DNA of 47,926 nucleotides from an uncultured bacterium (GTDB lineage: Bacteria; Patescibacteriota; Minisyncoccia; Phycocordibacterales; UBA11359). The position numbers and the translations under genes were made by a program. The stretch spans positions 1 through 47,926 of the forward strand of contig CAIKZC010000003.1 in the NCBI GenBank assembly GCA_903831815.1, in the 5' to 3' direction. The notes below the pieces were generated by a model. That model worked only from the letters and a program-made list of their open reading frames with translations. It was not told the DNA's origin and ran no database searches. Position 1 is the first letter of the stretch; each line of letters begins with the position of its first letter. Shown here piece after piece: positions 5,807-24,485 of this stretch.

Positions 5807-5810
5807 CTTT

Positions 5811-6071: not shown

Positions 6072-6118
6072 AATAAGCCTTTTTCTATTTTGCCAATATT
6101 TGATATACTGTATTCAGT

Positions 6119-8826: not shown

Positions 8827-9727
8827 ATGCCCTGAATATATTTTCCAATGAATTCTTATAAGTATAGTTTTTTATTAATTCCTGTTGATGTTTGACGACA
8901 TCTATATATTCTTCTTTGGATAATTTTAAAATTCTATTGACCATTTCATCCATATTTTCGGAATATATATTGTATTCCTTCAATATATCATTGAATTTTT
9001 TAATGTTTGAAAATGCCAACTGTCCGAAGGATATGTTCTTGAACATTCGACACGGCAAGTAATTAACCTTTACTTGAATTTCTCCTCCAATCGCCGGCGC
9101 AATTCTTGATTTTCTAACAAAAAAACTATTCAGCCATTCCGGAATAAACCTTACTTGTTTGAATTTCAGACCATATTTAATTAAAACTTCCTTCAGTTTG
9201 TTTATTTCACCGATATTTCCGTGATTATTTTTATCATTCCAGATGCTGCCCACCCAATACACCGTTTTATTTTTATTAAATACGGGTTTTTTGAATTCCT
9301 CATATAATAGATGCGTTCCCCAAGGCTGCGAAAGGGTCTGAGTTTTGGAGTCGTAATAAGTCACATCGCCCCATTTTTGATCGGATGATTCTACATTGTT
9401 TGTATAAACACAAAGTTTCAACAAATACCTCTTATCTATTTTGTCGGTAAATATTTCTTTAAAATGATGCAGGCAGTAATATACTCCGTCCACAATAGGA
9501 AGATTATAGTCTTCAAATTTGGTCTTTTCTGGGACCATTTTCCCGACCATTTCTGCGGAAATAACCAAATCTCCTTTTTCGACAACGTGAGCATTCTCTT
9601 TTTCGTCTTCAACCCAGATAACCTTAAACCCGAGTTTCTGGGCGTTTTCATAAAATGCCTTGTGTATAAATCTATGGGTATGATATTTTTTTCTTAAGCC
9701 CCATATGACTATTTTGTTGTATTTCAT
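8777..9727 (-). CDS. Hypothetical protein in glycan locus (possibly a divergent GT-B-like transferase)
   Basis: 316-aa ORF, same strand and tightly packed with glycosyltransferases. I recognise no motif with certainty. Confidence 0.6.
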   Translation of the reverse strand: MKYNKIVIWGLRKKYHTHRFIHKAFYENAQKLGFKVIWVEDEKENAHVVEKGDLVISAEMVGKMVPEKTKFEDYNLPIVDGVYYCLHHFKEIFTDKIDKRYLLKLCVYTNNVESSDQKWGDVTYYDSKTQTLSQPWGTHLLYEEFKKPVFNKNKTVYWVGSIWNDKNNHGNIGEINKLKEVLIKYGLKFKQVRFIPEWLNSFFVRKSRIAPAIGGEIQVKVNYLPCRMFKNISFGQLAFSNIKKFNDILKEYNIYSENMDEMVNRILKLSKEEYIDVVKHQQELIKNYTYKNSLENIFRAFDQIELAHRQSQTNEQ

Positions 9728-9739
9728 GGTATTTAAGAC

Positions 9740-10753
9740 TTATTTTATATGTCTTCTGTAGTAATTCTTAAGTTTAGCATATGTGCCCTGGGGAAGCACT
9801 TTATGAAACATGTTGTTTATCATCGGAGTAAAATTTACGTATTTGAAGAATAAAAATTTTACTAAACCTGTCCTTAGGAGTTTGTATTTTATAGAATTGA
9901 ATTTTTCGGTATAAAGATCCTTATATGGTGAAAGTTTTAAGTATTTGTACCAAATATCTTCACAAGATCCCGGAAATAAATTGTTCCAGGGTTTACCGCA
10001 CGCATAATGGAAGATGTAAGTTTCCTCGATTTCTTTCCGGTCGATCGAGTTAAATAATCTATTGTAATTTCTTCCCATAAAGTTAGTAATTTCGGTATTA
10101 TTATATTTTTTATCTATAGGTTTGATTTTTCCATCAAATAAAACGTTTATAACATCTTGGTCTACCACCAGTAATTTATCGCCCAATGATTGTATGACTT
10201 TCTCCGCATTCTCGTAATTTAATATCAAATTACATTTTTTGACATCAAGAAGTATGACTCCCGTTTGAAAATATGGACCATTTGCGTTAAGACCCAACCT
10301 TTTCCTTGGTCCGACATTATCTTTTTCATATAACGCGCCCAAATAAAATTCTCCCAAATCGATTTCATAAAAATCATCGATTGGTTTATTGGCTACGATA
10401 TCGCAGTCCAAATAAAGTATCCTGTCCAAGTTTTTTGGCATCAACTCGTTGATCAAGAGTCTGTAGTAAGTTTCCTTGGTCCATCGGAGGGTCGGAGCGC
10501 TTGAAAAATACGAAGGATCGACATTTATAAAGAAAATATTTTGATTATAAATATTCGCCAAACTTCCGATCTTTTCTTTGCTCTCTTCGGATAAGTCTCC
10601 GGATAGGATATAAGCATTAATTTTTATCGGTTTATTCTGTAAATTTTCAAATACAGACGTTAAACATACGGAAAGAGGTAGGGCATAATCCGAATTACAG
10701 GACATCATGATGTTCATCTCTTTTTTCGTATTATGATGGTCTTGAGGTGCCAT
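9740..10753 (-). CDS. Glycosyltransferase family 8 (retaining hexosyltransferase, LPS 1,3-glycosyltransferase-like)
   Basis: SCNSDYALPLSVCLTSV, the DxD motif ILYLDCDIV, and YFQTGVILLD. Confidence 0.85.
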   Translation of the reverse strand: MAPQDHHNTKKEMNIMMSCNSDYALPLSVCLTSVFENLQNKPIKINAYILSGDLSEESKEKIGSLANIYNQNIFFINVDPSYFSSAPTLRWTKETYYRLLINELMPKNLDRILYLDCDIVANKPIDDFYEIDLGEFYLGALYEKDNVGPRKRLGLNANGPYFQTGVILLDVKKCNLILNYENAEKVIQSLGDKLLVVDQDVINVLFDGKIKPIDKKYNNTEITNFMGRNYNRLFNSIDRKEIEETYIFHYACGKPWNNLFPGSCEDIWYKYLKLSPYKDLYTEKFNSIKYKLLRTGLVKFLFFKYVNFTPMINNMFHKVLPQGTYAKLKNYYRRHIK

Positions 10754-10754
10754 G

Positions 10755-11504
10755 TTACTTTTTTATGAAAAAATCGTCGCACATGACCCTGGCAAAGTAA
10801 GTGTAATTATTCTTTTTTAAGAACGATCGAATTTCATTATTACCTAATTCTTTGCCGAGTCTAGCGCCAAAAAATGGGATATTTTTGAAACCAAGGTCAT
10901 TTTCCAGACCGATGACTGAGATATCGACTTTTGAAAAATCTAACCCTTTCAACACATTCATTTCGTACCCCTCAACGTCTATTGAGAGATAGTCTATCTT
11001 TTTCAAGCCGTGTTCGTTCAAAATATCATCTAAACGTCTTTGATCTACGGTTACCAGTTTACCGTCATTGTGGCATTTATTAAATCCTTGAACTCCGGAT
11101 AATCCGTGTTCCTCGGGCGTTCCTTCAATAAATAATATTTCTTTGTTTTCCGGTCCTGCCACAATTCCAATGCAAGGGGTCTTTCTTGCGTTTGTCCACA
11201 AATCGCGAAGTTTTTGCTGAGGTTCAATGGCAATCCCATTCCAACCGTTAAGTTCCAGAAGATAAGTATTATTTGATTCCGTAGGATGATTTGCACCTAT
11301 GTCCACAAAAGTTCCGCCATGTTTACCCTTAAAAATTTCGTTCAATACGAAAGAGTCTTGGCCGAATTGACTATAATGGGTGTTTTGAGATAAATTTCCA
11401 TCGTTAATAACTATTAGTTTACGATTCCAGGAGTAAAGTTTTATGGCATTTCGCATTATTTTTTTCCAAACTGTCTTAATTTTATTTCTCAATATTTTTT
11501 TCAT
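10755..11504 (-). CDS. FkbM-family SAM-dependent methyltransferase
   Basis: GTFVDIGANHP...NGWNGIAIEP and IDYLSIDVEGYE, typical of FkbM methyltransferases. Confidence 0.8.
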   Translation of the reverse strand: MKKILRNKIKTVWKKIMRNAIKLYSWNRKLIVINDGNLSQNTHYSQFGQDSFVLNEIFKGKHGGTFVDIGANHPTESNNTYLLELNGWNGIAIEPQQKLRDLWTNARKTPCIGIVAGPENKEILFIEGTPEEHGLSGVQGFNKCHNDGKLVTVDQRRLDDILNEHGLKKIDYLSIDVEGYEMNVLKGLDFSKVDISVIGLENDLGFKNIPFFGARLGKELGNNEIRSFLKKNNYTYFARVMCDDFFIKK

Positions 11505-11514
11505 AAATTGCCAT

Positions 11515-12582
11515 TTATCTAGCGGGTTCGAATAGTTTTTTTAATTTTTCTTCTACCGTTTCCTTTGAATATTCATTTTTTATCATTTCAATGCAAGCTT
11601 CATTGTGCGTTTTCATGAGCTTCGGGTCTTGCAGATAGGAAAGAATGTTTTCAGCTAATTTATTTTCGTCCGTAACGTCGTGGAACAAGGCCTTGTCCTT
11701 AAAGACTCCGGTAAATGACATTATCTTCGGCAAACATAGGGCGCATCCGCATAGTGCGGAATCATAAACGGCGACACATTGTCCCTCGTCAAATGATGAG
11801 TTTAAATATATCAAATTATCGTTAAGCTTGTTCGCAAGGTCTTTAAGTTCCACGAAACCGTAGAGAACGACGTTGTTGGTTAGTTCAAGTGTGCTTATTG
11901 TGGCGTTAAAATTCGGGTCCATGATCTGTCCGATAACGTTCAGTTTTATATCAGGTTTGGTTTTTTTGACGATAGCAAGAGCTTTTAAAATGGTGGAGAG
12001 ATTCTTTTTTTCCGTGACATTTCCAAAATAAACAAGATCTTTTCTATTTTGATTGTCATTCTTATAAAAATATTGTTGGGAGACGACCAATGGTACGACG
12101 ATCAACTTTTTCTCATCAATATTTTGCGTTAACAGGAAATCTTTCTCGGTTTGATTATTGAGCCTGACTTTAAAGAAAAATTTATAGACAAAATTTTGAA
12201 TTTTTTGTTTCAATCGGTTTCTCCTTTGCGGTTGTGTGTGTGCCATAAAAATAGCTTTTCTTGAAATGAAAGGCACGACGAAAGATTGCCATTCATAACT
12301 ATTTACGTAAAATGTGGTGCCTCTCCAAGCGTAGCGGATAACATCCCATAAATATCTTATGACGCCGGTATATTCGATCACTTCTATAACCTTGTCGAAA
12401 TGAGGATCTTTTTTCATATTTTCGGCGCTCCCTCGGACTATAGCGACAGGTTGGTAACCGAGTTCTTTGGCGATCAAGAGTGCATGCAAATGATAATTTT
12501 CCTCTGCGGAAAAATCATGAAAGTATTTGAAATATACCCAGATTATCGAAACAAAGTATTTTTTTGTGGGATTTTTTGACAC
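11515..12582 (-). CDS. Glycosyltransferase, GT-B fold (GT4/GT1-like)
   Basis: C-terminal half has NSSFDEGQCVAVYDSALCGCALCLP, resembling the E-x7-E region of GT4 enzymes. Located in the glycan locus. Confidence 0.7.
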   Translation of the reverse strand: MSKNPTKKYFVSIIWVYFKYFHDFSAEENYHLHALLIAKELGYQPVAIVRGSAENMKKDPHFDKVIEVIEYTGVIRYLWDVIRYAWRGTTFYVNSYEWQSFVVPFISRKAIFMAHTQPQRRNRLKQKIQNFVYKFFFKVRLNNQTEKDFLLTQNIDEKKLIVVPLVVSQQYFYKNDNQNRKDLVYFGNVTEKKNLSTILKALAIVKKTKPDIKLNVIGQIMDPNFNATISTLELTNNVVLYGFVELKDLANKLNDNLIYLNSSFDEGQCVAVYDSALCGCALCLPKIMSFTGVFKDKALFHDVTDENKLAENILSYLQDPKLMKTHNEACIEMIKNEYSKETVEEKLKKLFEPAR

Positions 12583-12594
12583 CTAATTTAGTGG

Positions 12595-13854
12595 TTATTT
12601 GCTAAGGAGATCTTTATAAAGTGTTTGATACTGATCGGCTATGGTTTCCCAAGTAAAGCGTTCTAACCAGGCTTGGTGACCTTTTTCAGCCATTTGGATT
12701 CGTTTATCTTTATCATTACACATTTGTTCCAATATTTTGGCTGATTCTTTTATTTTTGCAACTGAGATCAGGAACGGCGCGTAGGTTTTTCGACCGATAA
12801 CGAACGAGTAGATTTGGTTGAGTAAAAGCATTGGTTTAGAGATCTTTCTCATTGGAATTTTAACCGTCGGCAATATAATGCCGCTTCCTGTCCATTCGGC
12901 CATTTCTTTGCTATTTCCCACCTCGGTAGCGAGGAATGGCGTTTTTGCGGCTGCACTTTCTATTAAAACGATAGGGGAGCATTCGGTGTTGGAGGTAAAA
13001 AGGAAAAGATCTGCCTGTTGGTGCGCCGAAATGACATATGGTCTTGGTACTTCCGCGACGATCAAGTTTTTGTGATTAAATATCCGTTGCCAAGAATATT
13101 TCCAAAGTCTGCTTTTCATTTTGCATGACCATTCACAACCCCTTCCGTTGGAGTTTCCGAGAATAAGCAAAGTTGTATTTTTTATCCTTGCTTTTTTGAA
13201 TATTTTTATGGCTTCGGCATGGCCTTTTACTCCGGTATGGGAACCTATATCCAAAATCAATAGATGATCTTTTGGAATCGATAGTTTTTCTCTTATGTCC
13301 ATTTTCGCCGGAGTTAGGAATTCACCCTTGGCTGCACCGTTTGGTATTTGAACGATATTTTTCACATTTGATGCTCGGGCAAAATCGATATCGGCATAAT
13401 CGTTTGAATGAAAAACGACCGTGTCATATTGCTTGAGCCATTCTTTCATGGAATTGAAATACTCCGAGTATTTTTGGTCGGTGAGCGCCGAGAAACCTTC
13501 GGGCACAAGAATTTTTTTAGCTGTTATTTCTTTAAGCATCGGTAAAGCAAGATCGGTCGCCCAATGTTGCCCCATGAAATTTACTAAAATATCAAAATCC
13601 TCACGTTTTAGAAGTTCTTTATATCGAGCGATTTCTTTCGTATCCCCCTTAATTCCAACGACCATATTGCCGTTAATATTAAATTGTTCTATTTTTACGC
13701 CGTTAATAATCAGGTCTTTACGGTCAGGATGGAAAGTGGTGGCAACCGTCACTGTGTGCCCCAAGGCGACCATTCGTTCGGAAATTTGTTTGACTATTTC
13801 TTGCATTCCGCCGACTGATGGGAAATAAAATTCACCCGTATGTAAGATGTTCAT
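12595..13854 (-). CDS. Glycosyltransferase family 4
   Basis: N-terminus NILHTGEFYFPSVGGMQ and C-terminal SNTECSPIVLIESAAAKTPFLATEVG. Confidence 0.8.
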   Translation of the reverse strand: MNILHTGEFYFPSVGGMQEIVKQISERMVALGHTVTVATTFHPDRKDLIINGVKIEQFNINGNMVVGIKGDTKEIARYKELLKREDFDILVNFMGQHWATDLALPMLKEITAKKILVPEGFSALTDQKYSEYFNSMKEWLKQYDTVVFHSNDYADIDFARASNVKNIVQIPNGAAKGEFLTPAKMDIREKLSIPKDHLLILDIGSHTGVKGHAEAIKIFKKARIKNTTLLILGNSNGRGCEWSCKMKSRLWKYSWQRIFNHKNLIVAEVPRPYVISAHQQADLFLFTSNTECSPIVLIESAAAKTPFLATEVGNSKEMAEWTGSGIILPTVKIPMRKISKPMLLLNQIYSFVIGRKTYAPFLISVAKIKESAKILEQMCNDKDKRIQMAEKGHQAWLERFTWETIADQYQTLYKDLLSK

Positions 13855-13860
13855 GATATT

Positions 13861-14745
13861 TTATTTAACAAATGAAAAATATTTTTTAAATAACGCAATT
13901 GTTCCCAGACTAACCAACGTCAGTATTTGTTTCGGTTCGTTAGTAAGTATCTCATAAATAAGTGTTGATGTTTGAGAAAAAGTAAGTCCTTTCCAATTTT
14001 GTCTGATAAGTTGGACTTTCATAGCTACTGATTCGCTTTTATTTAACTTTATTTTATCTCTCAGTTCAAATCTATAGTCCGCTATCTTTTTATTTATCTT
14101 TTTCTTTGCCGACTCTGTGAGAGAAGTGCTATGTCTCCTGTATTTATATGGCGTAGCGTTGATGTAAGAATAACGAAATCCTTTTAAATAAGATCTTACC
14201 CAAAAATCATAATCTTCGATCAAAAATAAGGAAGTATCAAAACCGTTCAAAGATTCATGGACTTTCTTGCGATAAATAAACGATGCTCCGATTGATCCCG
14301 GTAAAGGAAATTCATTTGGTTTACCGACACGGCAGATCTCTATTTCGTTTCCATTTTCATCTATGGCGATGTAATCAGAATAAACAATATCCGCTCCGGT
14401 CCTCTTTATTTCCTGAATCATGAGCTCTAAAAAATCATTTTGAAGTATATTATCGTCACTAGTCCAAGTATAAAATTGTCCTATGGCTTCATTAAAACCT
14501 ATGTTGAGCGATGCTGGAAGTTTTTTATTTTCGTAATTTCTGATAATTTTGATGCGGGTGTCTTTTTCGGCATACTCTTTCATGGTCTCAAACGACCCAT
14601 CGCTGGATTTGTCATCAACCAAGATCAGTTCAAAATCCTGAAAAGTCTGCGTTAAACAGCTTTCTATGGCCAGTCTCAAATATTTTTCTCCATTATGTAC
14701 CGGCAGGACGATGGAAACGATCGGGTTTAAATTCTGGTTGATCAT
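13861..14745 (-). CDS. Glycosyltransferase family 2
   Basis: VSIVLPVHNGEKYLRLAIESCLTQTF.DFELILVDDKSSDGS. ATGA-type overlap with the wecB stop. Confidence 0.85.
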   Translation of the reverse strand: MINQNLNPIVSIVLPVHNGEKYLRLAIESCLTQTFQDFELILVDDKSSDGSFETMKEYAEKDTRIKIIRNYENKKLPASLNIGFNEAIGQFYTWTSDDNILQNDFLELMIQEIKRTGADIVYSDYIAIDENGNEIEICRVGKPNEFPLPGSIGASFIYRKKVHESLNGFDTSLFLIEDYDFWVRSYLKGFRYSYINATPYKYRRHSTSLTESAKKKINKKIADYRFELRDKIKLNKSESVAMKVQLIRQNWKGLTFSQTSTLIYEILTNEPKQILTLVSLGTIALFKKYFSFVK

Positions 14746-15869
14746 AATTTAATTTTTTTTAAATGTTTGAAAATTCTTTTACTTGCCAGCCCGTCTCCAT
14801 AAGGATTTTTTGAAGCTGACATTTTATTGTATTTTTCAGGATGTTGGAGGAGTTTTTTGACCTCTAAAAATATTTTATTGCGATTTGTTCCTACTAAAAT
14901 TGCTGTGCCGGCATCTATACCCTCAGTGCGTTCCGTGAAATCTCTCATGACCAGAACCGGTTTGCCTAAAGAGGGAGCTTCCTCTTGAATCCCGCCAGAA
15001 TCAGTCATGATTAGATACGACTTTTCCATTATCCATAAAAGTTGCGGATAATCCAAGGGTTCCAGTAAATGAATTCCGGGTTGACCGGCCAATATTTTAT
15101 ATGCCGGTTTTCGAATGTTTGGGTTGGGGTGAACCGGGAAAACAATCTCAACATCGGAAAAATTTTTGACGATATCTTTAATCGCCTTGCAGATGTTTTC
15201 AAAAGAATTGCCAAAACTTTCACGACGATGCGCCGTAACGAGGATTATCTTTTTAGAGAAATCGACGTTCGCGAAATCTTTATTGGAGACCATCTTCCCG
15301 TTATTTTTTAATATTTTTAATCCCAATAACAGGGCGTCAATCGAAGTGTTTCCCACTTCAAAAACGTTTTTTGTTATTGATTCTTTAGCCAGTGCTTCCA
15401 CGGCTTTTTTCGTTGGTGCAAAATGATAATCGGCAATATGTCCGGCAATTATCCTGTTCATTTCTTCCGGAAATGGCGAATATTTTTGACCACTTCGCAA
15501 ACCGGCTTCAATGTGCACGACTTTGATTTTGCAATAGTATCCAACCAAAGCGCCGACAAATGCCGTGGTTGTGTCACCTTGGACCAAAATAATGTCCGGT
15601 TTATAATTTTTTACGATTTTCTCCAAATCTTTGATGATATCCGCGGTAATACTGAACAGTGTTTGGTCTTGTTTCATTACATGAAGATCAAAATCCGGAC
15701 GAATTTTAAAAAAGTGCAAGACCTGATCCAATAATTCACGATGCTGTCCCGTGACGCAGATCTTGAAAGTAAATTCCGGATGTTTCGAAGTTTCTTTAAT
15801 AAGAGGAGCCATTTTTATAGCTTCAGGTCTGGTTCCAAATATAAAAAGCAGTTTTTTGCGTGATTTCAT
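14742..15869 (-). CDS. wecB: UDP-N-acetylglucosamine 2-epimerase (non-hydrolysing)
   Basis: Motifs FGTRPEAIKMAPL, VQGDTTT and DSGGIQEEAPSLGKPVLVMR. Confidence 0.92.
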   Translation of the reverse strand: MKSRKKLLFIFGTRPEAIKMAPLIKETSKHPEFTFKICVTGQHRELLDQVLHFFKIRPDFDLHVMKQDQTLFSITADIIKDLEKIVKNYKPDIILVQGDTTTAFVGALVGYYCKIKVVHIEAGLRSGQKYSPFPEEMNRIIAGHIADYHFAPTKKAVEALAKESITKNVFEVGNTSIDALLLGLKILKNNGKMVSNKDFANVDFSKKIILVTAHRRESFGNSFENICKAIKDIVKNFSDVEIVFPVHPNPNIRKPAYKILAGQPGIHLLEPLDYPQLLWIMEKSYLIMTDSGGIQEEAPSLGKPVLVMRDFTERTEGIDAGTAILVGTNRNKIFLEVKKLLQHPEKYNKMSASKNPYGDGLASKRIFKHLKKIKL

Positions 15870-15871: not shown

Positions 15872-18592
15872 TTATATTTTCTTACCGACCCAGCCGATAA
15901 ACAGATCGTCAGCCTTGTTTTTATTGTAAGACAAATTTTCGAAGATAGACACCGTCAGGTTTTTATCGGTCATCTTATTTGTCAATTCTTGGGCATCAAA
16001 CCAGGTTTCCCATTCAGATAGCGCCATACTTCCAAGTTTATTGATGTTTTTGTCTATGATCACCAATGTTCCGCCTTTTTTGGTGACTCGAGCCATTTCT
16101 CTGATCGCACCTTCAATATTTACGGCATGTTCCAATGCTTCAATGCAGTAACTCAGATCGAACGTGCTATCAGGATACGGAATACTCAATAATGAACCTT
16201 GCTTAGTTACGATCTTTGGTTCCACTGATTTAAGAATTTCGTCCGAAATATCTACGCCGAAAGGTTTGATCTCGGGATTCCTTTCCAATAATTTTGAAAT
16301 AAATCTGCCTTTGCCGCAGCCAATATCAATAACGGTTTTATAGTTGTTTTTTCTTAAGACATTTTCTATGAGGCTATATCGGCCGTCATTCTCGTCAACA
16401 TAAGAAGGAAAGATTTGCGCCGTCATGTTGAATTCGCAACGAATTTTCCAATACAATGCGTCCAAGAAATATTTTACGGCCCAACTGATTTCTTGATTCT
16501 GAAAATAATTCGCTTTCCAACCATAACTTCCAAACCATCCGCCGGATCTATTTTGAAGTTTCAGCGCGTACGAAAAAGCTTTGTTTCCTTTTTCTAATTC
16601 ATTCAATTTATACCAACAGATCGCATATTGAAACAGTCCTGTCGAACAAACGAATTTTGCGTCTTGATATGCCGGCACTGAACCGTTTCTGTTTTGGTAA
16701 GCGGAAAGATTTATCATGGCTTGCTCAGCGCGTTTCGTTTCACCAAGATCGATCAGTGCTTCGATTATATAAGCATGGAAATGCGAGAGGGTATTAAAAT
16801 CCGTCAAATCATTTTTTTTCAAATAAAAGTTTAACGCTTTGTTCACACATTCGTTGTATTTGGGAATATTCCATTTTTTTCCGGCTGTCCTTATGGGCAG
16901 AAGGGCATATAAATGAATAGCTTCAGGAACACGCTTGTCATTGGGCAAGCTCCACACCGAGTAATCGGGCGTTGAAATACTGCCGTCACTTCGCTGTTGG
17001 GTTAGGATCCAATCGCAACCTTTTAAAATGTTCTGTTTATATTCGGGTCGTATATCCACAAGAGATAGCAGGCCTTTTAATATCTGTCCCGTATCAAAAG
17101 TGTAAGCTATTTTGCATTGAGGAGCGTTCCATGAACCGTCGGGATTTTGAATGGAAACTAAATAATCGGCAAATTGAATTGCTCGATCTTTTTCGCCCCA
17201 GGATAATAGCGTTGGGATGATATAACCGGTCACTTCCGGATAACTATCTTTATGTAGATTGCTCAACTGGATCCCTTTTTGATCGATCGAATTATTTTTT
17301 ATCCACATCAAAGCGGCATTAAAGCTGTTCAATATAGTATTTTTGCGATTTCTGGGAAAAATTGACCTTATTATTTCCACAATTTTGTGATAAAGACGGA
17401 ATGGGTGAGTCAGGGCAAACAGGAGCTTTTTGGCGAACACCCTTAATTTTCTGTAGATCCTTTTTAATCTGTTCAAGCCTGATCTTTTTTTGACCTCGAA
17501 TTTTATTTTTCTGTAGATCGCTCGATAAGGGTGATTTTTTTCCTCTGCGATAATTTGCAAGATCGCCAAAGCCGTTCGATAACTTGATGAACCGTCACGA
17601 TATGAGACGTGATGGTTTACCCAATTTATCCGTTCAGCATCAAGAATATCTTTTTTAATTATATTCTGGATCTCCTTTGGTATTTCTTGAGGATGAGATA
17701 TTAGCGGGATCGATTTAGGCAGATCCGAAGAGTAAATCCATTCGGCAAATTCTTTTTCATCCTGCACCAAACCAATGGTCCTTTTGCCCGCGATTAAGGA
17801 TTCGGTCATGGCACTACTGCGCGTATCGGCCAAGATCACATCCGCGACAGCCAACCATTTTGGCAGATCGAACGGATCAGTTGCGATCAAGACTCCGGAA
17901 TTTTTTAATGCTTGCATTCGTTCTGGCTCGAATCGAACCGTGCAATGGTGGGGTTTTACGACGACCTGGTACTCGGATTGCAGTTTAGAAATAGTTTCAA
18001 AGAATTTTTCGAAGGTGGAATTATGTGCCCATGTTGGAAGATACAAAATCAGAGGCTTGTTATTATCAAGTTTCCAACTTTTTCTGATCTCGACGTTTTT
18101 AAGTTTTCCGGAAAACAGATCGTCGTATCGCGGATAGCCGATGATGGGAAGTTGATCGACTTTTTTCCATTCAGAAATTAGTTTTTGATAGTATGGACCA
18201 TGCACAAGGATAGCATCGAATGGTCTGGCGGCTTTTTCACTTGTGCCCCAAGCGGTCGGAAAGACACTCGGTCCATACATCAATCGAATATGAGGTTGCT
18301 TATATGGTTCCACAACCTCGCCGTTTTGAGTAGTGATACCTATGGCCGAAAAGTCGGCTTTTGTTATGAGGGGAATATTCCTTTCCTTGATATATTTGAC
18401 AGCCCGATCAAAATCAAACCATTTTTTGTCTCTAAGATGGCTTTTCTCGTTAGGCACGACGACTATTCGCGCGTCAACTTCCATTTGTCGCAAAGATCGC
18501 CAGATCGGTTCGTAGTTAGCGATTTCAAATGCGTCAATGACATGAAATTCAATTTTAAGATCTTTTTTTAGATTCTTTTTATGTTTGGACAT
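15872..18592 (-). CDS. Three-domain fusion: TagF/TagB-like CDP-alditol phosphotransferase + alpha/alpha-toroid (prenyltransferase/terpene-cyclase-like repeat) domain + class I SAM methyltransferase
   Basis: N-terminus (~aa 1-340): ILYLPTWAH...VVVKPHH...VILADTRSSAMTE (Glyphos_transf-like). Middle (~aa 430-720): repeated QNPDGSW / QRSDGS / QNRNGS / QNRSGGW motifs. C-terminus (~aa 730-906): VIDIGCGKGRF...FDLSYCIEALEH...GGTLVIIDKN. Confidence 0.8.
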   Translation of the reverse strand: MSKHKKNLKKDLKIEFHVIDAFEIANYEPIWRSLRQMEVDARIVVVPNEKSHLRDKKWFDFDRAVKYIKERNIPLITKADFSAIGITTQNGEVVEPYKQPHIRLMYGPSVFPTAWGTSEKAARPFDAILVHGPYYQKLISEWKKVDQLPIIGYPRYDDLFSGKLKNVEIRKSWKLDNNKPLILYLPTWAHNSTFEKFFETISKLQSEYQVVVKPHHCTVRFEPERMQALKNSGVLIATDPFDLPKWLAVADVILADTRSSAMTESLIAGKRTIGLVQDEKEFAEWIYSSDLPKSIPLISHPQEIPKEIQNIIKKDILDAERINWVNHHVSYRDGSSSYRTALAILQIIAEEKNHPYRAIYRKIKFEVKKRSGLNRLKRIYRKLRVFAKKLLFALTHPFRLYHKIVEIIRSIFPRNRKNTILNSFNAALMWIKNNSIDQKGIQLSNLHKDSYPEVTGYIIPTLLSWGEKDRAIQFADYLVSIQNPDGSWNAPQCKIAYTFDTGQILKGLLSLVDIRPEYKQNILKGCDWILTQQRSDGSISTPDYSVWSLPNDKRVPEAIHLYALLPIRTAGKKWNIPKYNECVNKALNFYLKKNDLTDFNTLSHFHAYIIEALIDLGETKRAEQAMINLSAYQNRNGSVPAYQDAKFVCSTGLFQYAICWYKLNELEKGNKAFSYALKLQNRSGGWFGSYGWKANYFQNQEISWAVKYFLDALYWKIRCEFNMTAQIFPSYVDENDGRYSLIENVLRKNNYKTVIDIGCGKGRFISKLLERNPEIKPFGVDISDEILKSVEPKIVTKQGSLLSIPYPDSTFDLSYCIEALEHAVNIEGAIREMARVTKKGGTLVIIDKNINKLGSMALSEWETWFDAQELTNKMTDKNLTVSIFENLSYNKNKADDLFIGWVGKKI

Positions 18593-18611
18593 TGCGGGAA
18601 TATTACTCTCT

Positions 18612-19991
18612 CTATTTTCTAACCGCTATCACTTGCCCAGTAATATCTGAAAGAGAAACTTTAAGGGTCTCCATCGCCACTTTTTGAGGTTCAAGCAAGG
18701 ACTCTTTCGGTTCATTGCCGAAATTGTTTCTGCGCATCGGCGTATCCGTTCTGGAAGGGCACATAGCGTTGATTCTTATTTCCTTTTCGATCAATTCCTC
18801 GGCCATAGCCTGGACAAAATTGACGATAGCCGCCTTTGTTGCGGAATAGATAGAATAATTCGCTCTGCCTCTGGTATATGAACTGGAAGTAAATAATATG
18901 ATACTTCCGCCTTTTTTCATGTTATTGATAGCCGATTTAACGATGTTGGTTTGAGCTGAAAAATTGACGTCAACTTGTTTTAATATTGTTTCCAAAGAGG
19001 TTTTTTCCAAACGTTCCATATTTAAAATTCCGGCCGTAGAAATGATGATGTCTATTTTCCCGTGTTTTTTGGCATGTTCATTTATAAGGTTGTCGACTTT
19101 TTCGAAATCACAAACGTCAAAATCATTGCTTAAAGAGTAGCCTGAGACATTTGCCGAATGTTTTTTACAGAGATCGAAGATCTCTTTACCGATCCCGCTA
19201 CTGTGACCAAAGATCAAAACATTTTTCTTGACCATCATTTTACTTAAGTTTACCGGTTTTAGGTCTTGGATCTGTCTGATCTGAAATATTTTATCGGCGA
19301 TATCGATATCGATAGGGTGTGTTATTTTGATATTTTCTTCGTCGCCTTGAACGACAAAAATTTCTCCCAGTTTATATTTCATGATCAATCCGCAATCATC
19401 GGTCACAGCTTGAAATTTCTCGTTGGTTGCAATTTCGTGGGCTTTCATGATCGTCTTAAATTGAAAACCTTGAGGAGTCTGACCACGATATATCACGGAT
19501 CTTTTTGGAATACCGGCAATTACGCTTTTTTCGTTGGTTTCAATCAAAGTGTCGACGGCAGGTATAGCCACATCCACTGATACGAATTTATCAAGTTTTT
19601 TGAGGACTTCCGAAATGATCCCGGGAGCTATAAAAGGTCTAACTGCGTCATGAATCAAGACTTTGTTGGTATTTTTTTGATCGCAATTTGCAAGACCAAT
19701 TTTTGAAGACTCCTGTCTTGTCGTGCCACCTTCAAGAATTTTGGTGATTTTTTTAAGTTGTGCCTTTTTGATCCATTGTTCGCATTCTTGAAGAATGCCT
19801 TTACTGGTCACGAGTATGACCTCGTCGATCTCGGCATGATTTTCGAAGACTTCCAAGGTATGTAAAAAAACCGGCTTGCCTGCAATACTAATCATTTGCT
19901 TTGGAATTTCACTAGTTCGAAATCTGGTTCCTCCACCGGCAGCGAGGATAATGGCGACATTTTTTTTGGTTTTTTTCGTGTTCGTGCTCAT
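18612..19991 (-). CDS. Bifunctional nucleotidyltransferase (IspD/TarI-like) + short-chain dehydrogenase; CDP-ribitol synthase-like (Bcs1/TarIJ-type)
   Basis: N-terminus VAIILAAGGGTRF...PKQ (cytidylyltransferase). C-terminus IFGHSSGIGKEI, STAGI and YSATKAA (SDR TGxxxGxG and YxxxK motifs). Confidence 0.75.
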   Translation of the reverse strand: MSTNTKKTKKNVAIILAAGGGTRFRTSEIPKQMISIAGKPVFLHTLEVFENHAEIDEVILVTSKGILQECEQWIKKAQLKKITKILEGGTTRQESSKIGLANCDQKNTNKVLIHDAVRPFIAPGIISEVLKKLDKFVSVDVAIPAVDTLIETNEKSVIAGIPKRSVIYRGQTPQGFQFKTIMKAHEIATNEKFQAVTDDCGLIMKYKLGEIFVVQGDEENIKITHPIDIDIADKIFQIRQIQDLKPVNLSKMMVKKNVLIFGHSSGIGKEIFDLCKKHSANVSGYSLSNDFDVCDFEKVDNLINEHAKKHGKIDIIISTAGILNMERLEKTSLETILKQVDVNFSAQTNIVKSAINNMKKGGSIILFTSSSYTRGRANYSIYSATKAAIVNFVQAMAEELIEKEIRINAMCPSRTDTPMRRNNFGNEPKESLLEPQKVAMETLKVSLSDITGQVIAVRK

Positions 19992-19995
19992 GTTT

Positions 19996-21270
19996 TTATT
20001 TCAAATGTTCCGATTGCCAATTATGATCTACTAATATCGCTCCGCTCCAGCTCGGATCAGGCAATTTGCCGCTACCGAAAAAATCACCGTTCTCCACTTC
20101 GATATCGACTTTGCCTGGAAGATAAAAAAGAGTTTGGTTTTCAGAAGTGGCTTTTAACGTGAGATGGTATTGACCGGGCATAAGCGGAACTTTAGGGATC
20201 TGACAAGTAATGTACGTTTGTGGGGGAGTCAGCGTGAGGGTATCGTTTTTTAACGGAGAATACATGACGCATATGCGCTTGTCATCTTGAATCGAATTTA
20301 TGCCGATCGTGACAGCGATGCTATCTCTTTTTTGATTTGTTTTGATTAGCATTCTTAAGGAACCGGAATGTCCTGATTGTAGCGCGGAAACAATCTTGCC
20401 TTCGTGGTTGAGGATCTCCAATTGCGACAACGTAATATCCAAATTTTTATCCTGATAAATATCCTGATCGTGCGACAAGCCTTTGTTGCTGGTGTGATAT
20501 TCGGAAATTATCTCTTCGGTCGGTCCGATCTTTTTGATCTTTCCTTCGTGAATTAAGATCGTTTTTGGACAAAGTTTTTTGACCGCGTCCATGTTGTGGC
20601 TCACGAACAGGATCGTGCGACCTTCTTTTTTGGTGATGTCATCCATTTTGCCAAGGCATTTTTTCTGGAATTCGGCGTCGCCGACGGCCAAAACCTCGTC
20701 GATGATCAAAATATCCGGATCCATATGCGCCGCGACCGAGAAGGCGAGTCGGACATACATGCCGCTTGAGTAATGTTTTACAGGCGTATCCAAAAATTTT
20801 TCTATTCCGGCAAAAGAAACGATCTCATCGAATTTGCTCACTATCTCTTTCTTGGTCATGCCTAGGATCGCGCCATTCAGAAAAATGTTTTCGCGGCCTG
20901 AGAGCTCTGGATGAAAACCGGTACCGACTTCAAGCAAACTTCCAACTCGTCCGTTTATTTTTATTTCTCCCTCGGTCGGAGGAGTGATTTGCGATAATAT
21001 CTTGAGAAGAGTTGATTTACCTGCCCCATTGCGGCCGATGATCCCGACGACTTCACCTTTTTTTACCTCAAAATTTATATCTCGTAAGGCCCAAAATTCC
21101 TCTTTTTTGGCAATGCCGGTAGCTTCTTTGGTCTTTTGTTTAAGGAATTGAAATGGATTTTTTATTATGTTGGCCAAAACGTCGCGCAGGGCGATGTAGC
21201 CTCCTCTTTGATGAGTGATGTTATATTTTTTGCTGATATTTTTTACTGAAATTACGATCTCGTTTTGCAT
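19996..21270 (-). CDS. Polysaccharide/teichoic-acid ABC exporter ATP-binding protein (TagH/Wzt-like) with ~170-aa C-terminal extension
   Basis: Walker A GRNGAGKST, signature YSSGM, Walker B ILIIDEVLAVGD. A beta-rich extra domain follows the ABC core (aa ~255-424). Confidence 0.88.
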   Translation of the reverse strand: MQNEIVISVKNISKKYNITHQRGGYIALRDVLANIIKNPFQFLKQKTKEATGIAKKEEFWALRDINFEVKKGEVVGIIGRNGAGKSTLLKILSQITPPTEGEIKINGRVGSLLEVGTGFHPELSGRENIFLNGAILGMTKKEIVSKFDEIVSFAGIEKFLDTPVKHYSSGMYVRLAFSVAAHMDPDILIIDEVLAVGDAEFQKKCLGKMDDITKKEGRTILFVSHNMDAVKKLCPKTILIHEGKIKKIGPTEEIISEYHTSNKGLSHDQDIYQDKNLDITLSQLEILNHEGKIVSALQSGHSGSLRMLIKTNQKRDSIAVTIGINSIQDDKRICVMYSPLKNDTLTLTPPQTYITCQIPKVPLMPGQYHLTLKATSENQTLFYLPGKVDIEVENGDFFGSGKLPDPSWSGAILVDHNWQSEHLK

Positions 21271-21275: not shown

Positions 21276-22142
21276 TTAAATGATATCGGCAAAATAACGC
21301 TCGGTTTTTTTAAAGACTATTGTTCCGATGATCAAAATTATGATGGATGCGATAAATGAGATTAGAATAAGCAACCAATTAATCGGCGCAGTGTGTAGAA
21401 AAGCGGCGCGTGCCGTTTGAATGACTCCGGACATCGGATTAAAGGCTAAGACCCAAGAATATTTTCCGGCGATACTGGAGGAATATATAACCGGTGTGAT
21501 GAACATGAAAAGTTGTATGAAGTAGGGAAGGATATATCGCACGTCTCGGTATTTTACGTTGATCGAGGCTAGAAAAAGTCCGCCACCGAGCGCCGCGATA
21601 AAAGTCATAAAAAGCAAAAGCGGTAAAAGCAAAAGTCCGATCATGTTCGGAACAAAATGGTAATAAAACATGAGGCCGATCAAAATTATTGTGGCGATTC
21701 CAAAGTCTACCAATTTTGTGGCGACGGTAGAAATAGGAAGTATAAGTCGAGGAAAATAAACTTTTGTAACGATCGATTGGTTGGTGATAAGCGAATTGCT
21801 GGTGTCAGAAAGTGCGTCTGAAAAAAATTGCCAAAATAAAAGTCCGACATAGACGAAAATAGGGTAAGGAACACCGTCTGATGGAACTCCGGCCAGCTTA
21901 CCGAAAAACAAACTAAAAACGATCATACTCATGATGGGTTGAAATAATGCCCAAGCAACACCAATGAAGGTTTGCTTATATCGGACCTTAAAATCACGCC
22001 AGGTGAAAAAATATAGGAGTTCTCTATGGTTCCAAATTTCCTGAAAATCACGTAAACTCAGGGTTTTTTTGGGTTTTATGACCATAGTTTGTGCTGTGGA
22101 TGCCATGAAGTGTATCTTATCTTTAATTTGCTCTTTACTCAA
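21276..22142 (-). CDS. ABC-2 type polysaccharide/teichoic-acid exporter permease (TagG/Wzm-like)
   Basis: ELLYFFTWRDFKVRYKQT, typical of ABC-2 permeases, plus about six hydrophobic segments. Lies immediately upstream of the ATPase gene. Confidence 0.85.
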   Translation of the reverse strand: MSKEQIKDKIHFMASTAQTMVIKPKKTLSLRDFQEIWNHRELLYFFTWRDFKVRYKQTFIGVAWALFQPIMSMIVFSLFFGKLAGVPSDGVPYPIFVYVGLLFWQFFSDALSDTSNSLITNQSIVTKVYFPRLILPISTVATKLVDFGIATIILIGLMFYYHFVPNMIGLLLLPLLLFMTFIAALGGGLFLASINVKYRDVRYILPYFIQLFMFITPVIYSSSIAGKYSWVLAFNPMSGVIQTARAAFLHTAPINWLLILISFIASIIILIIGTIVFKKTERYFADII

Positions 22143-22199: not shown

Positions 22200-24485
22200 A
22201 TGACATTCAATAGATCACTATTTTTTACAGTCGTCGGTTTGTTATTTGCGGTATTATTCATCCCTCTTTTTGTCACTAATAGTTTATTTTTCCCGTATAT
22301 TACGGGTAAAAACTTCGCGTTTAGGATCATTGTTGAGCTTGCCTCGTTGGCTTGGATAATGCTCATTCTGCGAGACAAAAGCTATCGTCCGAAACTGAAC
22401 GGACTTTCGATCGCAGTTTTGATTTTTGCGATCATAGTTGGTGTTGCCGATATTTTTAGCAGTAATCCGCTAAAAAGTTTTATCAGCAACTTTGAACGAA
22501 TGGAAGGCTGGATTACCATTGCCCATCTTGCGTTATATTTTTTCCTTTTGACAGCTGTTTTGCGATCTTGGGATTTTTGGAAAAGACTATTTCAAACATC
22601 AGTCGCTGTTAGCGCAATAGTTTGCATTCAGGGTTTTATGCAATTTGCCGATCCGACAGCTCAAAGCGGTCCTCGCATCTATGCAAGTTTTGGTAATGCG
22701 ACCTACTTGGCAGTCTATATGTTGTTTCATATATTTATCACGCTTATCCTTTTGGCTCGCCATTTAAAAAATCGTAAAGAGAACACAAAAAGTCTTTGGT
22801 CTTCAAAATATTGGTATACCGATTTCGCCGTTTATATATATCTCATCCTTATGGTCTTGCAGACTATCATTCTTTTTCTAACCGCCACCCGAGGTTCCAT
22901 TTTGGGTCTCATTGGAGGTTTATTCCTTACCGGTATCGTTGTTGCAATTACCGAAAAAGAGCATAAGATTTTACGAAAAATTTCCATCGGCATCATAATA
23001 GTTATTTTTGCGATCGTCGGGACATTCTTTTTGGTCAAAAACACTTCATTTGTAAAAAATAACGTAACTCTTGGACGATTGGCTTCTATTTCTGCGACGG
23101 ATAACACAACAAAAGCTCGTTTCATGATCTGGAATATGGCATGGGATGGAGTGATTTCGAGCCCAAAACATTTCGTGATTGGTTGGGGACAGGAGAGTTT
23201 CAATTATCTTTTTGCCGCATATTACAATCCGGGAATGTACGGTCAGGAGCAATGGTTTGATCGCGCGCATGATATTGTTTTTGATTGGTTGACCGCCGCA
23301 GGTGTACTTGGTTTATTGTCATATCTTTCTATCTTTGTCATGACGCTATACGGTATTTGGCGAAAGTCCAATTTCTCCAGTTTGGAAAAAGGTTTGCTAA
23401 CCGGATTGCTGGCTGGTTATTTCTTTCACAATTTATTCGTGTTCGACAATATCACGAGTTACATTTTGTTCTTTATGATCTTGGCGTATGTTAATTCGTT
23501 CAATAAAAAAATTGATGAACCGATTCACAACGCGCAGAAAAAAGAAGGAAAAGAAATTAATCTTTCATTCCAATATGCGGGAATGATCTTGGCTGGCATA
23601 GCTTTTGTTGTTGTGTTCTATCAATATGATTATAAACCGATAACAGCCAATCTCGATCTCATAAAATCTTTGACTCAAACTCAGATCGTATCCGCCAATT
23701 CTTCATCAAATAATGTTTATACCGAAGAAAATGTGAATGATTTCAAAGAAGCTCTCTCTTTAAACACTATCGGCTTGTATGAAACTCGCGAACAATTGTT
23801 GGATGTTGCAGTAAAATCGGTGGGTTCAAATTCTGATAATGCGGTCAAAAAGGATCTAGTGACTTTGGCGGAGTCGGAATTATCAAAACAGCTGAAAGAA
23901 ACGCCGAATGACGTTCGGTATTATGTGCTAGGCGGTAATTTCTTACAAAATCTTGGAGATTATAAAAATGCCGGAATGCTTTTGACTAAAGCAAAACAAC
24001 TTTCTCCGAATAAACAAAGTCTTTTATTCGCCTATGGTTCGAATCAGTTTGCTCTGAAACAATATACCGATGCTTTGGCGACCTTTAAAAAGGCATATGA
24101 GTTGGATAAAAGTTTTACGGAAGCCAAAAATCTCTACGCTCTGGTCGCGCTTTATGTCGGTCAAGAAGATATAACGAACAGTCTCCTTGGTCCAGGTCCG
24201 ATCATGGATCCGAGATTTTTGGCGGCCTACAAAGAGACAAAACATTATGATCTTATGATGGCATATTTGGAAAAAACTGTGGCTTCAAATCCACGTGATA
24301 TTCAAGGGCAAGTTTCTCTTGCTGCGGGCTATGTGGCGATTGGAAATCGCACGAAAGCGGTGGCGACGTTGCAATTCTCAAAAACATTAACGGTCGATAA
24401 AGGAATTCAATCTCAAATCGACAGTTTTATCAAAGATATTCAGGCGGGTAAAAATCCTTTTGAATCGACTACTACCGCGCAATAG
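22200..24485 (+). CDS. O-antigen ligase/polymerase-like (Wzy_C) polytopic membrane protein with C-terminal TPR domain
   Basis: Many TM helices. LTATRGSILGL and RAHDIVFDWLTAAGVLG resemble the Wzy_C/O-antigen-ligase signature. The last ~250 aa contain TPR-like repeats (YKNAGMLLTKAKQLSPN, YTDALATFKKAYELD). Confidence 0.8.
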   Translation: MTFNRSLFFTVVGLLFAVLFIPLFVTNSLFFPYITGKNFAFRIIVELASLAWIMLILRDKSYRPKLNGLSIAVLIFAIIVGVADIFSSNPLKSFISNFERMEGWITIAHLALYFFLLTAVLRSWDFWKRLFQTSVAVSAIVCIQGFMQFADPTAQSGPRIYASFGNATYLAVYMLFHIFITLILLARHLKNRKENTKSLWSSKYWYTDFAVYIYLILMVLQTIILFLTATRGSILGLIGGLFLTGIVVAITEKEHKILRKISIGIIIVIFAIVGTFFLVKNTSFVKNNVTLGRLASISATDNTTKARFMIWNMAWDGVISSPKHFVIGWGQESFNYLFAAYYNPGMYGQEQWFDRAHDIVFDWLTAAGVLGLLSYLSIFVMTLYGIWRKSNFSSLEKGLLTGLLAGYFFHNLFVFDNITSYILFFMILAYVNSFNKKIDEPIHNAQKKEGKEINLSFQYAGMILAGIAFVVVFYQYDYKPITANLDLIKSLTQTQIVSANSSSNNVYTEENVNDFKEALSLNTIGLYETREQLLDVAVKSVGSNSDNAVKKDLVTLAESELSKQLKETPNDVRYYVLGGNFLQNLGDYKNAGMLLTKAKQLSPNKQSLLFAYGSNQFALKQYTDALATFKKAYELDKSFTEAKNLYALVALYVGQEDITNSLLGPGPIMDPRFLAAYKETKHYDLMMAYLEKTVASNPRDIQGQVSLAAGYVAIGNRTKAVATLQFSKTLTVDKGIQSQIDSFIKDIQAGKNPFESTTTAQ

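Follow-up and report, generated by a model that had tools for sequence, protein, structure and literature searches.

A candidate cap synthase joining a TagF-like domain, an (alpha/alpha)6 toroid and a methyltransferase in a patescibacterial Wzm/Wzt glycan locus

Cap-gated export through the carbohydrate-binding domain (CBD) of the transporter ATPase Wzt is a central quality control for O antigens, S-layer glycans and related polymers, and the pairing of a chain-end cap with CBD-dependent export is an established paradigm (PMC9445017, PMC11231755). Here we analyse a 47,926-nucleotide stretch of DNA (hereafter the window) from an uncultured bacterium (contig CAIKZC010000003.1), in which a minus-strand operon (22142->8029) carries the gene for a 906-amino-acid (aa) protein (15872..18592, minus strand). 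This protein unites a TagF-like CDP-alditol phosphotransferase domain, an (alpha/alpha)6 toroid and an S-adenosylmethionine (SAM)-dependent methyltransferase. We favour, at a probability a little short of even, a reading in which the operon is an assembly line for a lipid-linked surface glycan, cap-gated and dependent on an ATP-binding cassette (ABC) transporter, and in which the export cap would include a single ribitol-phosphate, placed on the chain end by the TagF-like domain. All functions given here to the operon proteins are inferred.

In the ABC-dependent pathways of E. coli O9a and K. pneumoniae O3, with the terminator WbdD, and in the WzmWzt system of A. aeolicus, a methyl or methyl-phosphate cap at the non-reducing end halts chain growth and serves as ligand for a jelly-roll CBD carried on the nucleotide-binding domain (NBD) of Wzt. 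The window Wzt aligns with that of A. aeolicus over both NBD and CBD; the methyltransferase domain of the 906-aa protein, a putative terminator, is encoded in the same operon as Wzt with its CBD, in conserved synteny; and sister proteins of the 906-aa enzyme carry a WbdD-like kinase-methyltransferase pair. The window protein differs from WbdD, however, in having a toroid, a TagF-like phosphotransferase with CDP-ribitol rather than ATP as putative donor, and a basic linker of ~60 aa in place of a coiled-coil ruler, and the host of WbdD is Gram-negative with lipopolysaccharide, whereas that of the window is a Patescibacterium. No WbdD chain is found among the listed PDB sequence and fold matches of the 906-aa protein, nor among the listed sequence matches of a kinase-bearing relative (P0018), and homology of the 906-aa protein to WbdD was therefore rejected. 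By analogy, the locus would work like the WbdD/Wzt-CBD system without being a member of that terminator family.

Taken as a whole, the locus is most similar to the S-layer glycan (slg) clusters of Gram-positive bacteria. In those of G. stearothermophilus NRS 2004/3a and P. alvei, the genes for the central enzymes follow shortly after wzm and wzt (PMC2943079). The G. stearothermophilus cluster includes WsaB and WsaE, the latter combining a terminating O-methyltransferase and two polymerising transferases in one polypeptide, and that of P. alvei (WsfC, TagD, WsfE, WsfB) encodes a protein with TagF-like and glycosyltransferase parts, a cytidylyltransferase, an N-acetylmannosamine (ManNAc) transferase and the O-oligosaccharyltransferase WsfB, with Wzy_C and TPR domains (PMC2943079). 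Counterparts of all these slg features are present in the window. WsaE, however, has neither a toroid nor a TagF-like domain, and the donor in the window would be CDP-ribitol.

Other described proteins share parts of this design. K. pneumoniae O12 WbbB and O7 ORF6 are multi-module proteins for termination and assembly that partner CBD-bearing transporters, as proposed here, but a coiled-coil ruler separates their terminator from their polymerase, and their modules are glycosyltransferases or a kinase-methyltransferase pair instead of a toroid and a TagF-like domain. A ruler of this kind is typical of the terminators characterised in Klebsiella and E. coli. TagF, TarL, TagB, Cps3D and Bcs3 resemble the window domain in their GT-B-like core and their YxPTW and K-x-H motifs, and also in relying on a CDP-alditol donor whose synthesis gene lies adjacent; in contrast to these enzymes, the window domain is fused to a toroid and a methyltransferase and not to a membrane-targeting or TPR domain. 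Finally, the mycobacterial methylmannose polysaccharide (MMP) system (ManT, MeT1/MeT3, MmpH) offers the same trio of glycosyltransferase, SAM methyltransferase(s) and (alpha/alpha)6 protein, with MmpH acting alongside a glycosyltransferase and methyltransferases (PMC9883506). It differs in that the polymer is cytoplasmic and has no exporter, and in that MmpH and the toroid are 11% identical.

The 906-aa protein and its domains

Pfam places three families along the protein: Glyphos_transf at residues 118-344 (39.3 bits, cut-off 22.1), SQHop_cyclase_C at 453-538 (29.9 bits, cut-off 26.1) and Methyltransf_11 at 755-845 (65.3 bits). An AlphaFold2 model built on a 66-sequence alignment (mean predicted local distance difference test score, pLDDT, 90.9) shows three well-folded domains and a low-confidence helical linker at 356-410. 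Together with Foldseek, these results confirm an earlier note on this DNA, which had recognised a CDP-alditol phosphotransferase, a toroid with four QW motifs and a SAM methyltransferase in one chain. The identical protein is present on three contigs, and full-length relatives exist at ~40% identity (P0006, P0007, P0008 and P0010), with further 50%-identity clusters sharing the architecture; the fusion is therefore real and not an assembly artefact. In the literature searched, which excluded the survey of CBD-linked terminators by Mann, Kimber and Whitfield (Glycobiology 2019, 29:822), we found no description of this three-domain architecture, of a toroid-methyltransferase scaffold, or of a TagF-like module in the slot of a terminator. 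Nor did it yield anything relevant on teichoic acids in Patescibacteria or on SQHop_cyclase_C domains combined with glycosyltransferases. The notion of an undescribed fusion thus holds for the architecture in that literature, but not for the principle, as polymerase and terminator are already known to share one polypeptide in WsaE, WbbB and Klebsiella O7 ORF6.

Residues 1-350 (17543..18592, minus strand) form a TagF/TarL-like CDP-alditol phosphotransferase core with a GT-B-like fold, as assigned by Pfam, profile and Foldseek comparisons. A single-sequence PDB search with the 906-aa protein did not find TagF and a profile was required; the one built from a clean 12-sequence alignment of N-domains matches TagF (3l7j, E 1.1e-11) and Cps3D (8qoy, E 2.3e-10). 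Foldseek on the domain returns TagF (3l7l) and TarL bound to CDP-ribitol (8va1). The domain carries the motifs TTQN (residue 87), LVHG (129), GYPRYD (152), YLPTW (184), KPHH (213) and YRDG (331), YLPTW and KPHH being invariant in the subfamily. The catalytic His444 of TagF is not conserved: in a low-confidence alignment it falls on N90 of the TTQN loop, and the equivalent position in relatives is N, A, S, F or Y. The domain is therefore placed in a divergent TagF subfamily, in which the family-specific H131 of LVHG might substitute for His444. As for His584 of TagF, which belongs to a K/R-x-H motif, HMMER places it on E222; the strand pattern suggests that its true equivalent is the invariant H215 in KPHH. 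The domain comprises the 350-aa catalytic core only, without the N-terminal domain of TagF/TarL polymerases, and there is one such domain in the operon.

The donor for this domain is predicted to come from the adjacent gene, which follows wzt (18612..19991, minus strand) and encodes a 459-aa CDP-ribitol synthase of the Acs1/Bcs1 type. An IspD-like cytidylyltransferase (Pfam IspD, residues 12-236, 160 bits) is joined there to a short-chain dehydrogenase-type reductase (adh_short, 287-424, 114 bits), and NCBIfam places the protein in the D-ribitol-5-phosphate cytidylyltransferase subfamily (172.6 bits, cut-off 166). On this sequence assignment the gene would supply CDP-ribitol to the TagF-like domain. 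In line with this notion, cytidylyltransferase genes precede the TagF-like gene in all four relatives examined.

Between the TagF-like core and the toroid lies a basic, amphipathic helical linker (residues 351-418; 17339..17542, minus strand), with a net charge of up to +9 per 18 residues and a hydrophobic moment of up to 0.69; its helices at 356-392 and 398-410 have pLDDT values of 47-69. The linker is probably a membrane-interface tether. That it could act as a long coiled-coil ruler is ruled out by its length (~60 aa), its charge and its amphipathicity. The C-terminal residues 731-906 (15875..16402, minus strand) form a class-I SAM methyltransferase, recognised by Methyltransf_11 and by motif I (VIDIGCGKG, at residue 754), which matches small-molecule and sugar O-methyltransferases and phosphoethanolamine methyltransferases in both PDB sequence searches and Foldseek.

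The middle domain (residues 419-724; 16421..17338, minus strand) is a conserved domain and not a simple linker. Alignments and Foldseek describe it as an (alpha/alpha)6 toroid with four QW-like motifs, at residues 482 (QNPDGSW), 532, 633 and 680 (QNRSGGW). Across stand-alone relatives ~45 positions are invariant, including the polar residues E453, D500, C526, H604, C649, E701, W704, K707 and D711, and E611 and D615 are nearly so (at least 90%). The best structural match, despite the low sequence identity, is MmpH (7qsj; TM 0.69-0.70, E 6e-10, 322-327 aligned columns), and squalene-hopene cyclase (8paj) is matched as well. The sequence match to squalene-hopene cyclase is confined to the QW repeats, the SQHop_cyclase_C match covering only profile positions 140-225 of 319, and residues 419-724 contain no DxDD (D.DD) or DDxxD motif. 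A squalene-hopene cyclase or prenyltransferase, the type of toroid proposed in the earlier note, was therefore rejected for this domain, which has in common with those enzymes only the QW repeats, lacks DxDD, and is a single barrel of ~300 aa as opposed to a two-barrel architecture. Judged by its modelled fold, the toroid is closer to a glycan hydrolase than to prenyltransferases or cyclases.

A recurring cassette and the Wzt binding domain

Among 1.84 billion representative proteins, a search with a toroid profile retrieves 309 clusters at E<=1e-30, 1168 at 1e-10 and 2186 at 1e-3. Among the best 150 clusters, 48 combine the toroid with a methyltransferase (toroid-MT), 21 are toroid-MT proteins with C-terminal extensions (pyruvyltransferases, FrhB/FdhB-like domains, further methyltransferases, or GT4 with TPR), and 15 are the toroid alone; kinase-MT-toroid-MT accounts for about 10, TagF-toroid-MT for about 8-9 and GT2-toroid-MT for about 7. 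Pfam confirms the pairing of Pkinase/APH with a methyltransferase in the kinase-MT relatives.

Two genes directly downstream of the 906-aa gene belong to the same recurring set. The first (14742..15869, minus strand) encodes a WecB/MnaA non-hydrolysing UDP-GlcNAc 2-epimerase, which makes UDP-ManNAc (Pfam Epimerase_2, 389 bits; TIGR00236 wecB, 480 bits, cut-off 210). The second (13861..14745, minus strand) encodes a 294-aa GT2 glycosyltransferase that is presumed to be a ManNAc transferase and is orthologous to GT2 domains fused elsewhere to toroid-MT or TagF-like domains: it is 38-48% identical to the GT2 fused to toroid(-MT) and 33-36% to the GT2 fused to TagF-like domains, as compared with 26% to the other GT2 of its own operon. 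In a survey of 33 toroid loci spanning many phyla, a GT2 of this type is found in 29 and WecB in 23, and a clean TagF-like match in 9. The fusion pairs seen, with the orthologue of the operon's GT2, are TagF~toroid-MT, GT2~toroid-MT and TagF~GT2. Given this three-way fusion network, the TagF-like domain, the GT2 and the toroid-MT should act on the same substrate.

The gene order that recurs is Wzm - Wzt(CBD) - [donor gene] - [X-toroid-MT] - WecB - GT2, in which X is exchanged. In the window and on the contig of P0008, X is a TagF-like domain encoded after a CDP-ribitol synthase; in L002 and L087 it is a TagF-like domain after an NTP_transf_3 nucleotidyltransferase, the L087 contig being too short to reach the transporter genes. 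TagF-toroid-MT after Wzm/Wzt(CBD) and a cytidylyltransferase is thus seen in the window, in L002 and on the contig of P0008. In L089 and L090, X is a kinase-MT pair that follows Wzm/Wzt(CBD) and a pyruvyltransferase.

The closest relative of the window locus, L003, is 70% identical in the toroid-MT, 53% in the TagF-like domain and 53% in the CBD, and its protein is split into TagF-like+MT and toroid-MT. There (626-7565), a fusion of phosphoenolpyruvate (PEP) mutase and cytidylyltransferase, a phosphonopyruvate decarboxylase and an iron-containing alcohol dehydrogenase directly precede the TagF-like+MT and toroid-MT genes, and the start of the contig holds a Wzt CBD. Going by their sequences, the PEP mutase-cytidylyltransferase, decarboxylase and dehydrogenase would make a phosphonate donor, that is, a pendant and not a polymerisable unit, and L003 is a candidate for a phosphonate-capped (2-hydroxyethylphosphonate-type) exported glycan. 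In a gammaproteobacterial metagenome-assembled genome, a stand-alone toroid forms a triad with WecB and GT2 and is followed by a sulfotransferase.

Toroid modules also occur in other settings. In L004 (10001-13000, in a 4.3-Mb genome), a kinase-MT-toroid-MT gene followed by WecB and GT2 adjoins a Wzx-type flippase (Polysacc_synt) and not an ABC transporter, so the module is not restricted to ABC-dependent pathways. In L006 (flagellin, 8305-9156) and L091 (FliD, 22591), GT2-toroid-MT and TagF-like+MT proteins adjoin flagellar genes, and such modules may serve flagellar glycosylation too. In L091 these proteins have as neighbour a mega-enzyme of 3064 aa that carries pyruvyltransferase, GT2 and GT4 domains.

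The exporter itself is encoded at the head of the operon. Gene 1 is wzm, the ABC-2 permease of a glycan exporter (21276..22142, minus strand; Pfam ABC2_membrane 43-248, 59.5 bits; NCBIfam Wzm/RfbD-like), and it is followed by wzt (19996..21270, minus strand), encoding a 424-aa ABC ATPase (Pfam ABC_tran 62-193, Wzt_C 276-395). In the direction of transcription of this minus-strand operon, wzt stands two genes upstream of the 906-aa gene, and not two genes downstream as the earlier note had it. Residues 1-262 (20485..21270, minus strand) are the NBD (ABC_tran, 86 bits), with A. aeolicus Wzt and TagH/TarH as best PDB matches, and residues ~265-424 (19999..20478, minus strand) form a beta-sandwich CBD.

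The Pfam match of the tail to Wzt_C (PF14524, residues 276-395) is marginal, with 31.5 bits against a gathering cut-off of 30.4. Nevertheless, a profile of 49 homologues aligns its positions 53-397 with residues 30-375 of full-length A. aeolicus Wzt (8dku), CBD included (E 1.8e-98), and the tail is modelled as all-beta with pLDDT values of 86-96; the top Foldseek matches of the Wzt model are full-length WzmWzt structures (7k2t/8dku; E 2e-38, 389-427 aligned columns). Pfam, profile alignment and fold together identify the tail as a true Wzt CBD, matching the carbohydrate-binding fold that had been suspected. The beta-rich tail, described as an extra domain in the earlier note, is real but ordinary: Wzt with a CBD is very common, with >8000 homologues scored and Wzt_C in most of the 120 listed, and many of the named homologues listed come from Patescibacteria. 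Among the A. aeolicus pocket residues (Leu300, Thr346, Ala348 and Trp362), Trp362 falls on a non-conserved column in the profile alignment. CBD pockets vary with the cap.

Across the 33 toroid loci there are 11 Wzt NBD matches and 12 CBD matches, no Wzt among those found lacking a CBD. Four loci, namely the window, L003, L002 and L018 (a split kinase-MT locus), have CBDs with 35-53% mutual identity, and these CBDs are 12-25% identical to that of every other toroid locus. Within the same cassette, CBD identity reaches 64-71% (L089 with L090; L019 with L028), whereas locus pairs with different cassettes show 12-29% even where their NBDs are 63-68% identical. These values point toward the idea that the CBD sequence tracks the variable module, rather than the constant toroid-MT or the NBD. 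Since the methyltransferase and the toroid are constant and the CBDs co-vary with the variable part, a methyl group alone is unlikely to be the CBD ligand.

Possible roles of the three-domain protein

In the reading that we favour, the glycosyltransferases of the operon would extend the chain in the cytoplasm, and the conserved GT2 would use UDP-ManNAc to place a ManNAc-type residue on the growing end. The 906-aa protein would then act as cap synthase, kept at the membrane by its linker: the toroid would grip the glycan end, the TagF-like domain would transfer one ribitol-phosphate from CDP-ribitol, and the methyltransferase would O-methylate the terminal unit. The resulting phosphodiester-type cap would halt elongation and be bound by the Wzt CBD, licensing export, and the divergently encoded Wzy_C-TPR protein would pass the glycan to an acceptor. 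Sister loci would use the same scaffold with other caps, namely methyl-phosphate (from the kinase-MT pair), phosphonate or a pyruvate ketal.

Several lines of evidence lead us to this reading. The TagF-like domain occupies the position of WbdD-like kinase-MT pairs, the nearest relative (L003) pairs a TagF-like domain with a phosphonate donor, toroid modules recur with enzymes that add blocking non-sugar groups (fused pyruvyltransferases, a neighbouring sulfotransferase), and the CBD co-varies with the variable module. Moreover, a coupling of capping to export, as suggested in the earlier note, fits with the 906-aa gene belonging to a conserved cassette that comes right behind Wzm/Wzt(CBD), although the methyl group that the note saw as the cap is, for the reason given above, unlikely to be what the CBD reads by itself. 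Precedents exist for ManNAc as the target, in that TagB puts glycerol-phosphate on ManNAc and CsaB pyruvylates ManNAc.

Other observations weigh against a cap-synthase role. Ribitol-phosphate is not in itself a blocking group. Full TagF-type proteins of 700-780 aa adjoin toroid-MT in L006, L008 and L012, and L092 encodes a TagF~GT2~TPR protein with WecB, a methyltransferase and a TagD-like gene and no other glycosyltransferase, which looks like a polymerase, so that the TagF-like subfamily can plausibly polymerise. The Asn or otherwise variable residue aligned with His444 makes the catalytic mechanism itself uncertain. In roughly half of the toroid loci no ABC transporter is seen within 10 kb, and with the Wzx flippase of L004 and the flagellin or FliD genes near others, the module is not tied to cap-gated export alone. 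The co-variation of the CBD, in turn, rests on 16 loci and is partly confounded by phylogeny.

Some of these observations favour the main alternative, closer to the earlier note, that the TagF-like domain is a polymerase or a once-per-repeat ribitol-phosphate transferase which, with the GT2 and other glycosyltransferases, builds a teichoic-acid-like [sugar(s)-ribitol-P]n chain, whose growth the toroid-MT ends by methylating the terminus, the CBD reading the methyl cap. We consider this possible, if on balance unlikely. The gene set is like that of wall-teichoic-acid and TagF-like capsule loci (WecB/MnaA, CDP-ribitol synthase, TagF-like enzyme, TagGH-type exporter); TagF~GT2(~TPR) fusions with an orthologous GT2 exist and resemble capsule polymerases, the one in L092 having no other transferase nearby; and, besides the full-length TagF-type neighbours of toroid-MT, both polymerase-terminator fusions (WsaE, WbbB, O7 ORF6) and methyl caps (the 3-O-methyl of A. 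aeolicus) are established. On the other hand, a kinase-MT pair, unable to polymerise, holds the same N-terminal slot in sister proteins with identical synteny, and L003 uses a phosphonate donor. The absence of the N-terminal domain of TagF/TarL polymerases from the single TagF-like domain of the operon speaks against polymerisation as well, and a methyl cap shared by cassette types is an unlikely ligand for CBDs that are only 12-29% identical between them, the methyltransferase being constant. With His444 not conserved in addition, the polymerase role proposed in the earlier note is weakened.

TagA and TagB make a ManNAc-glycerol-phosphate linkage unit in wall teichoic acid, and primases of the TagB type move alditol-phosphate onto the linkage-unit ManNAc. 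It is thus conceivable that no capping takes place, and that WecB, GT2, the TagF-like domain and toroid-MT work together on an internal ManNAc-based element, building and methylating either a reducing-end linkage unit or a side-chain decoration, with the CBD recognising something else. In this regard, the adaptor of the P. alvei S-layer glycan has a phospho-linked unit on ManNAc and is encoded together with a TagF-like gene, tagD and a ManNAc transferase (PMC2943079). The toroid-WecB-GT2 triad is kept across phyla while other glycosyltransferases vary, and many toroid loci lie without a nearby ABC transporter. Nevertheless, we regard such an element as improbable: the sister modules (methyl-phosphate-forming kinase-MT, pyruvyltransferase, sulfotransferase) add blocking groups, which would stop elongation from a linkage unit, and the cassette comes immediately after Wzt(CBD), with CBDs that co-vary with it. 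A further alternative concerns the toroid, which could be an active endo- or exo-glycanase of the MmpH/clan GH-L type that trims or recycles the methylated glycan, chain length being set by cleavage and not by a passive binding scaffold. Its top structural match is a methylmannose-polysaccharide hydrolase, whose partners are a glycosyltransferase and methyltransferases (PMC9883506), its invariant acids E453, D500, E701 and D711 occupy helix N-termini and loops, the arrangement seen in (alpha/alpha)6 active sites, and stand-alone toroid proteins without a methyltransferase adjoin WecB and GT2. However, identity to MmpH, whose catalytic acid and base are Asp47/Asp50 and Glu262, is just 11%, and (alpha/alpha)6 toroids serve also as pure binding domains, so that we hold an active glycanase to be rather unlikely.

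To our knowledge, the known caps are few (methyl, methyl-phosphate and 3-deoxy-D-manno-octulosonic acid, Kdo), and the envelope glycans of Patescibacteria are essentially undescribed. The locus points to a widespread, uncharacterised toroid-methyltransferase scaffold (~300-1200 clusters, many phyla) with interchangeable putative cap-forming modules, among them a teichoic-acid-type phosphotransferase. Extending the proposal to the whole family, toroid-MT modules could be an undescribed class of chain terminators without a coiled coil, in which the non-reducing end is gripped, or cut back, by the hydrolase-like (alpha/alpha)6 domain and then receives one of several caps from a plug-in phosphotransferase or ketal-forming module (ribitol-phosphate here; methyl-phosphate, phosphonate or pyruvate elsewhere), the caps co-evolving with the Wzt CBD; we put this forward as a tentative and still doubtful generalisation. 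In that case a TagF-like enzyme would serve as a terminator, ribitol-phosphate would be a new export cap, and the locus would be a first sign that the candidate phyla radiation (CPR) exports surface glycans under cap control. Confirmation would widen chain-termination chemistry, give a role to an orphan (alpha/alpha)6 family, provide matched cap-enzyme/CBD pairs for glycoengineering and offer a first handle on the envelope glycans of Patescibacteria. Even if the TagF-like domain were a polymerase, the 906-aa protein would still be a new layout of polymerase and terminator.

Other genes of the operon and the window

The operon consists of 12 minus-strand genes separated by intergenic gaps of -50 to +19 nucleotides (nt). 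Downstream of the 294-aa GT2, all on the minus strand, are genes for two GT4 glycosyltransferases (12595-13854 and 11515-12582), an FkbM methyltransferase (10755-11504), a GT8 (9740-10753), a 316-aa protein in which the Pfam scan finds no family (8777-9727) and, as last gene, the second GT2 (8029-8826); those with a family are assigned by Pfam. Together, these six genes (8029..13854) presumably build and decorate the adaptor and the repeat unit. Divergent from wzm, on the plus strand, a gene at 22200..24485 encodes a 761-aa membrane protein with Wzy_C (residues 217-376, 59 bits) and C-terminal TPR (531-658) matches in Pfam, Wzy_C being the domain of O-antigen ligases and O-oligosaccharyltransferases. 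By analogy with WsfB and PglL, this protein is a candidate transferase of the exported glycan to its acceptor.

The SecA encoded on the contig is 86-90% identical to its closest relatives, the named one being Candidatus Taylorbacteria (86%), and 66-70% identical to other Paceibacterota and Parcubacteria sequences. These identities place the host among the Patescibacteria (CPR), as a Taylorbacteria-like organism.

An rRNA operon reaches into the window with its 3' end (positions 1-1567). Its 23S match is 721 nt long but covers only model positions 2489-2925 (437 positions), implying an insertion of ~280 nt. One tRNA (910-981) lies between 23S and 5S (1176-1280), and a further tRNA is found at 1494-1567. 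Another, at 3072-3155 and with an Rfam score over the threshold, lies across the GTG codon predicted to start a MurD-like ligase open reading frame (ORF; 3078-4526); as the Pfam domains of the ligase begin at residue 39, its real start is probably further downstream.

The glycan region is flanked by genes for a DUF87/TrwB-like ATPase (VirD4-type coupling protein; 6119-8026) and a two-HKD protein resembling phospholipase D and cardiolipin synthase (30100-31173), both of which appear unrelated to the glycan operon. Further along, a gene at 35506-38763 encodes a 1085-aa protein whose sole Pfam match is CARDB (cell-adhesion-related); it sits among the glycolytic genes for enolase, phosphoglycerate mutase (iPGM) and a cupin-type glucose-6-phosphate isomerase (GPI), and its product is probably another surface protein. 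The window ends in a giant ORF (41549-47926) of at least 2126 aa, open at the contig end. It encodes a signal or anchor sequence at the N-terminus and diverged repeats of 42-46 aa, which form two blocks and bear Asp-box/BNR-like SxDxGxxW motifs. Its product is likely a large surface protein and could conceivably be a target of glycosylation.

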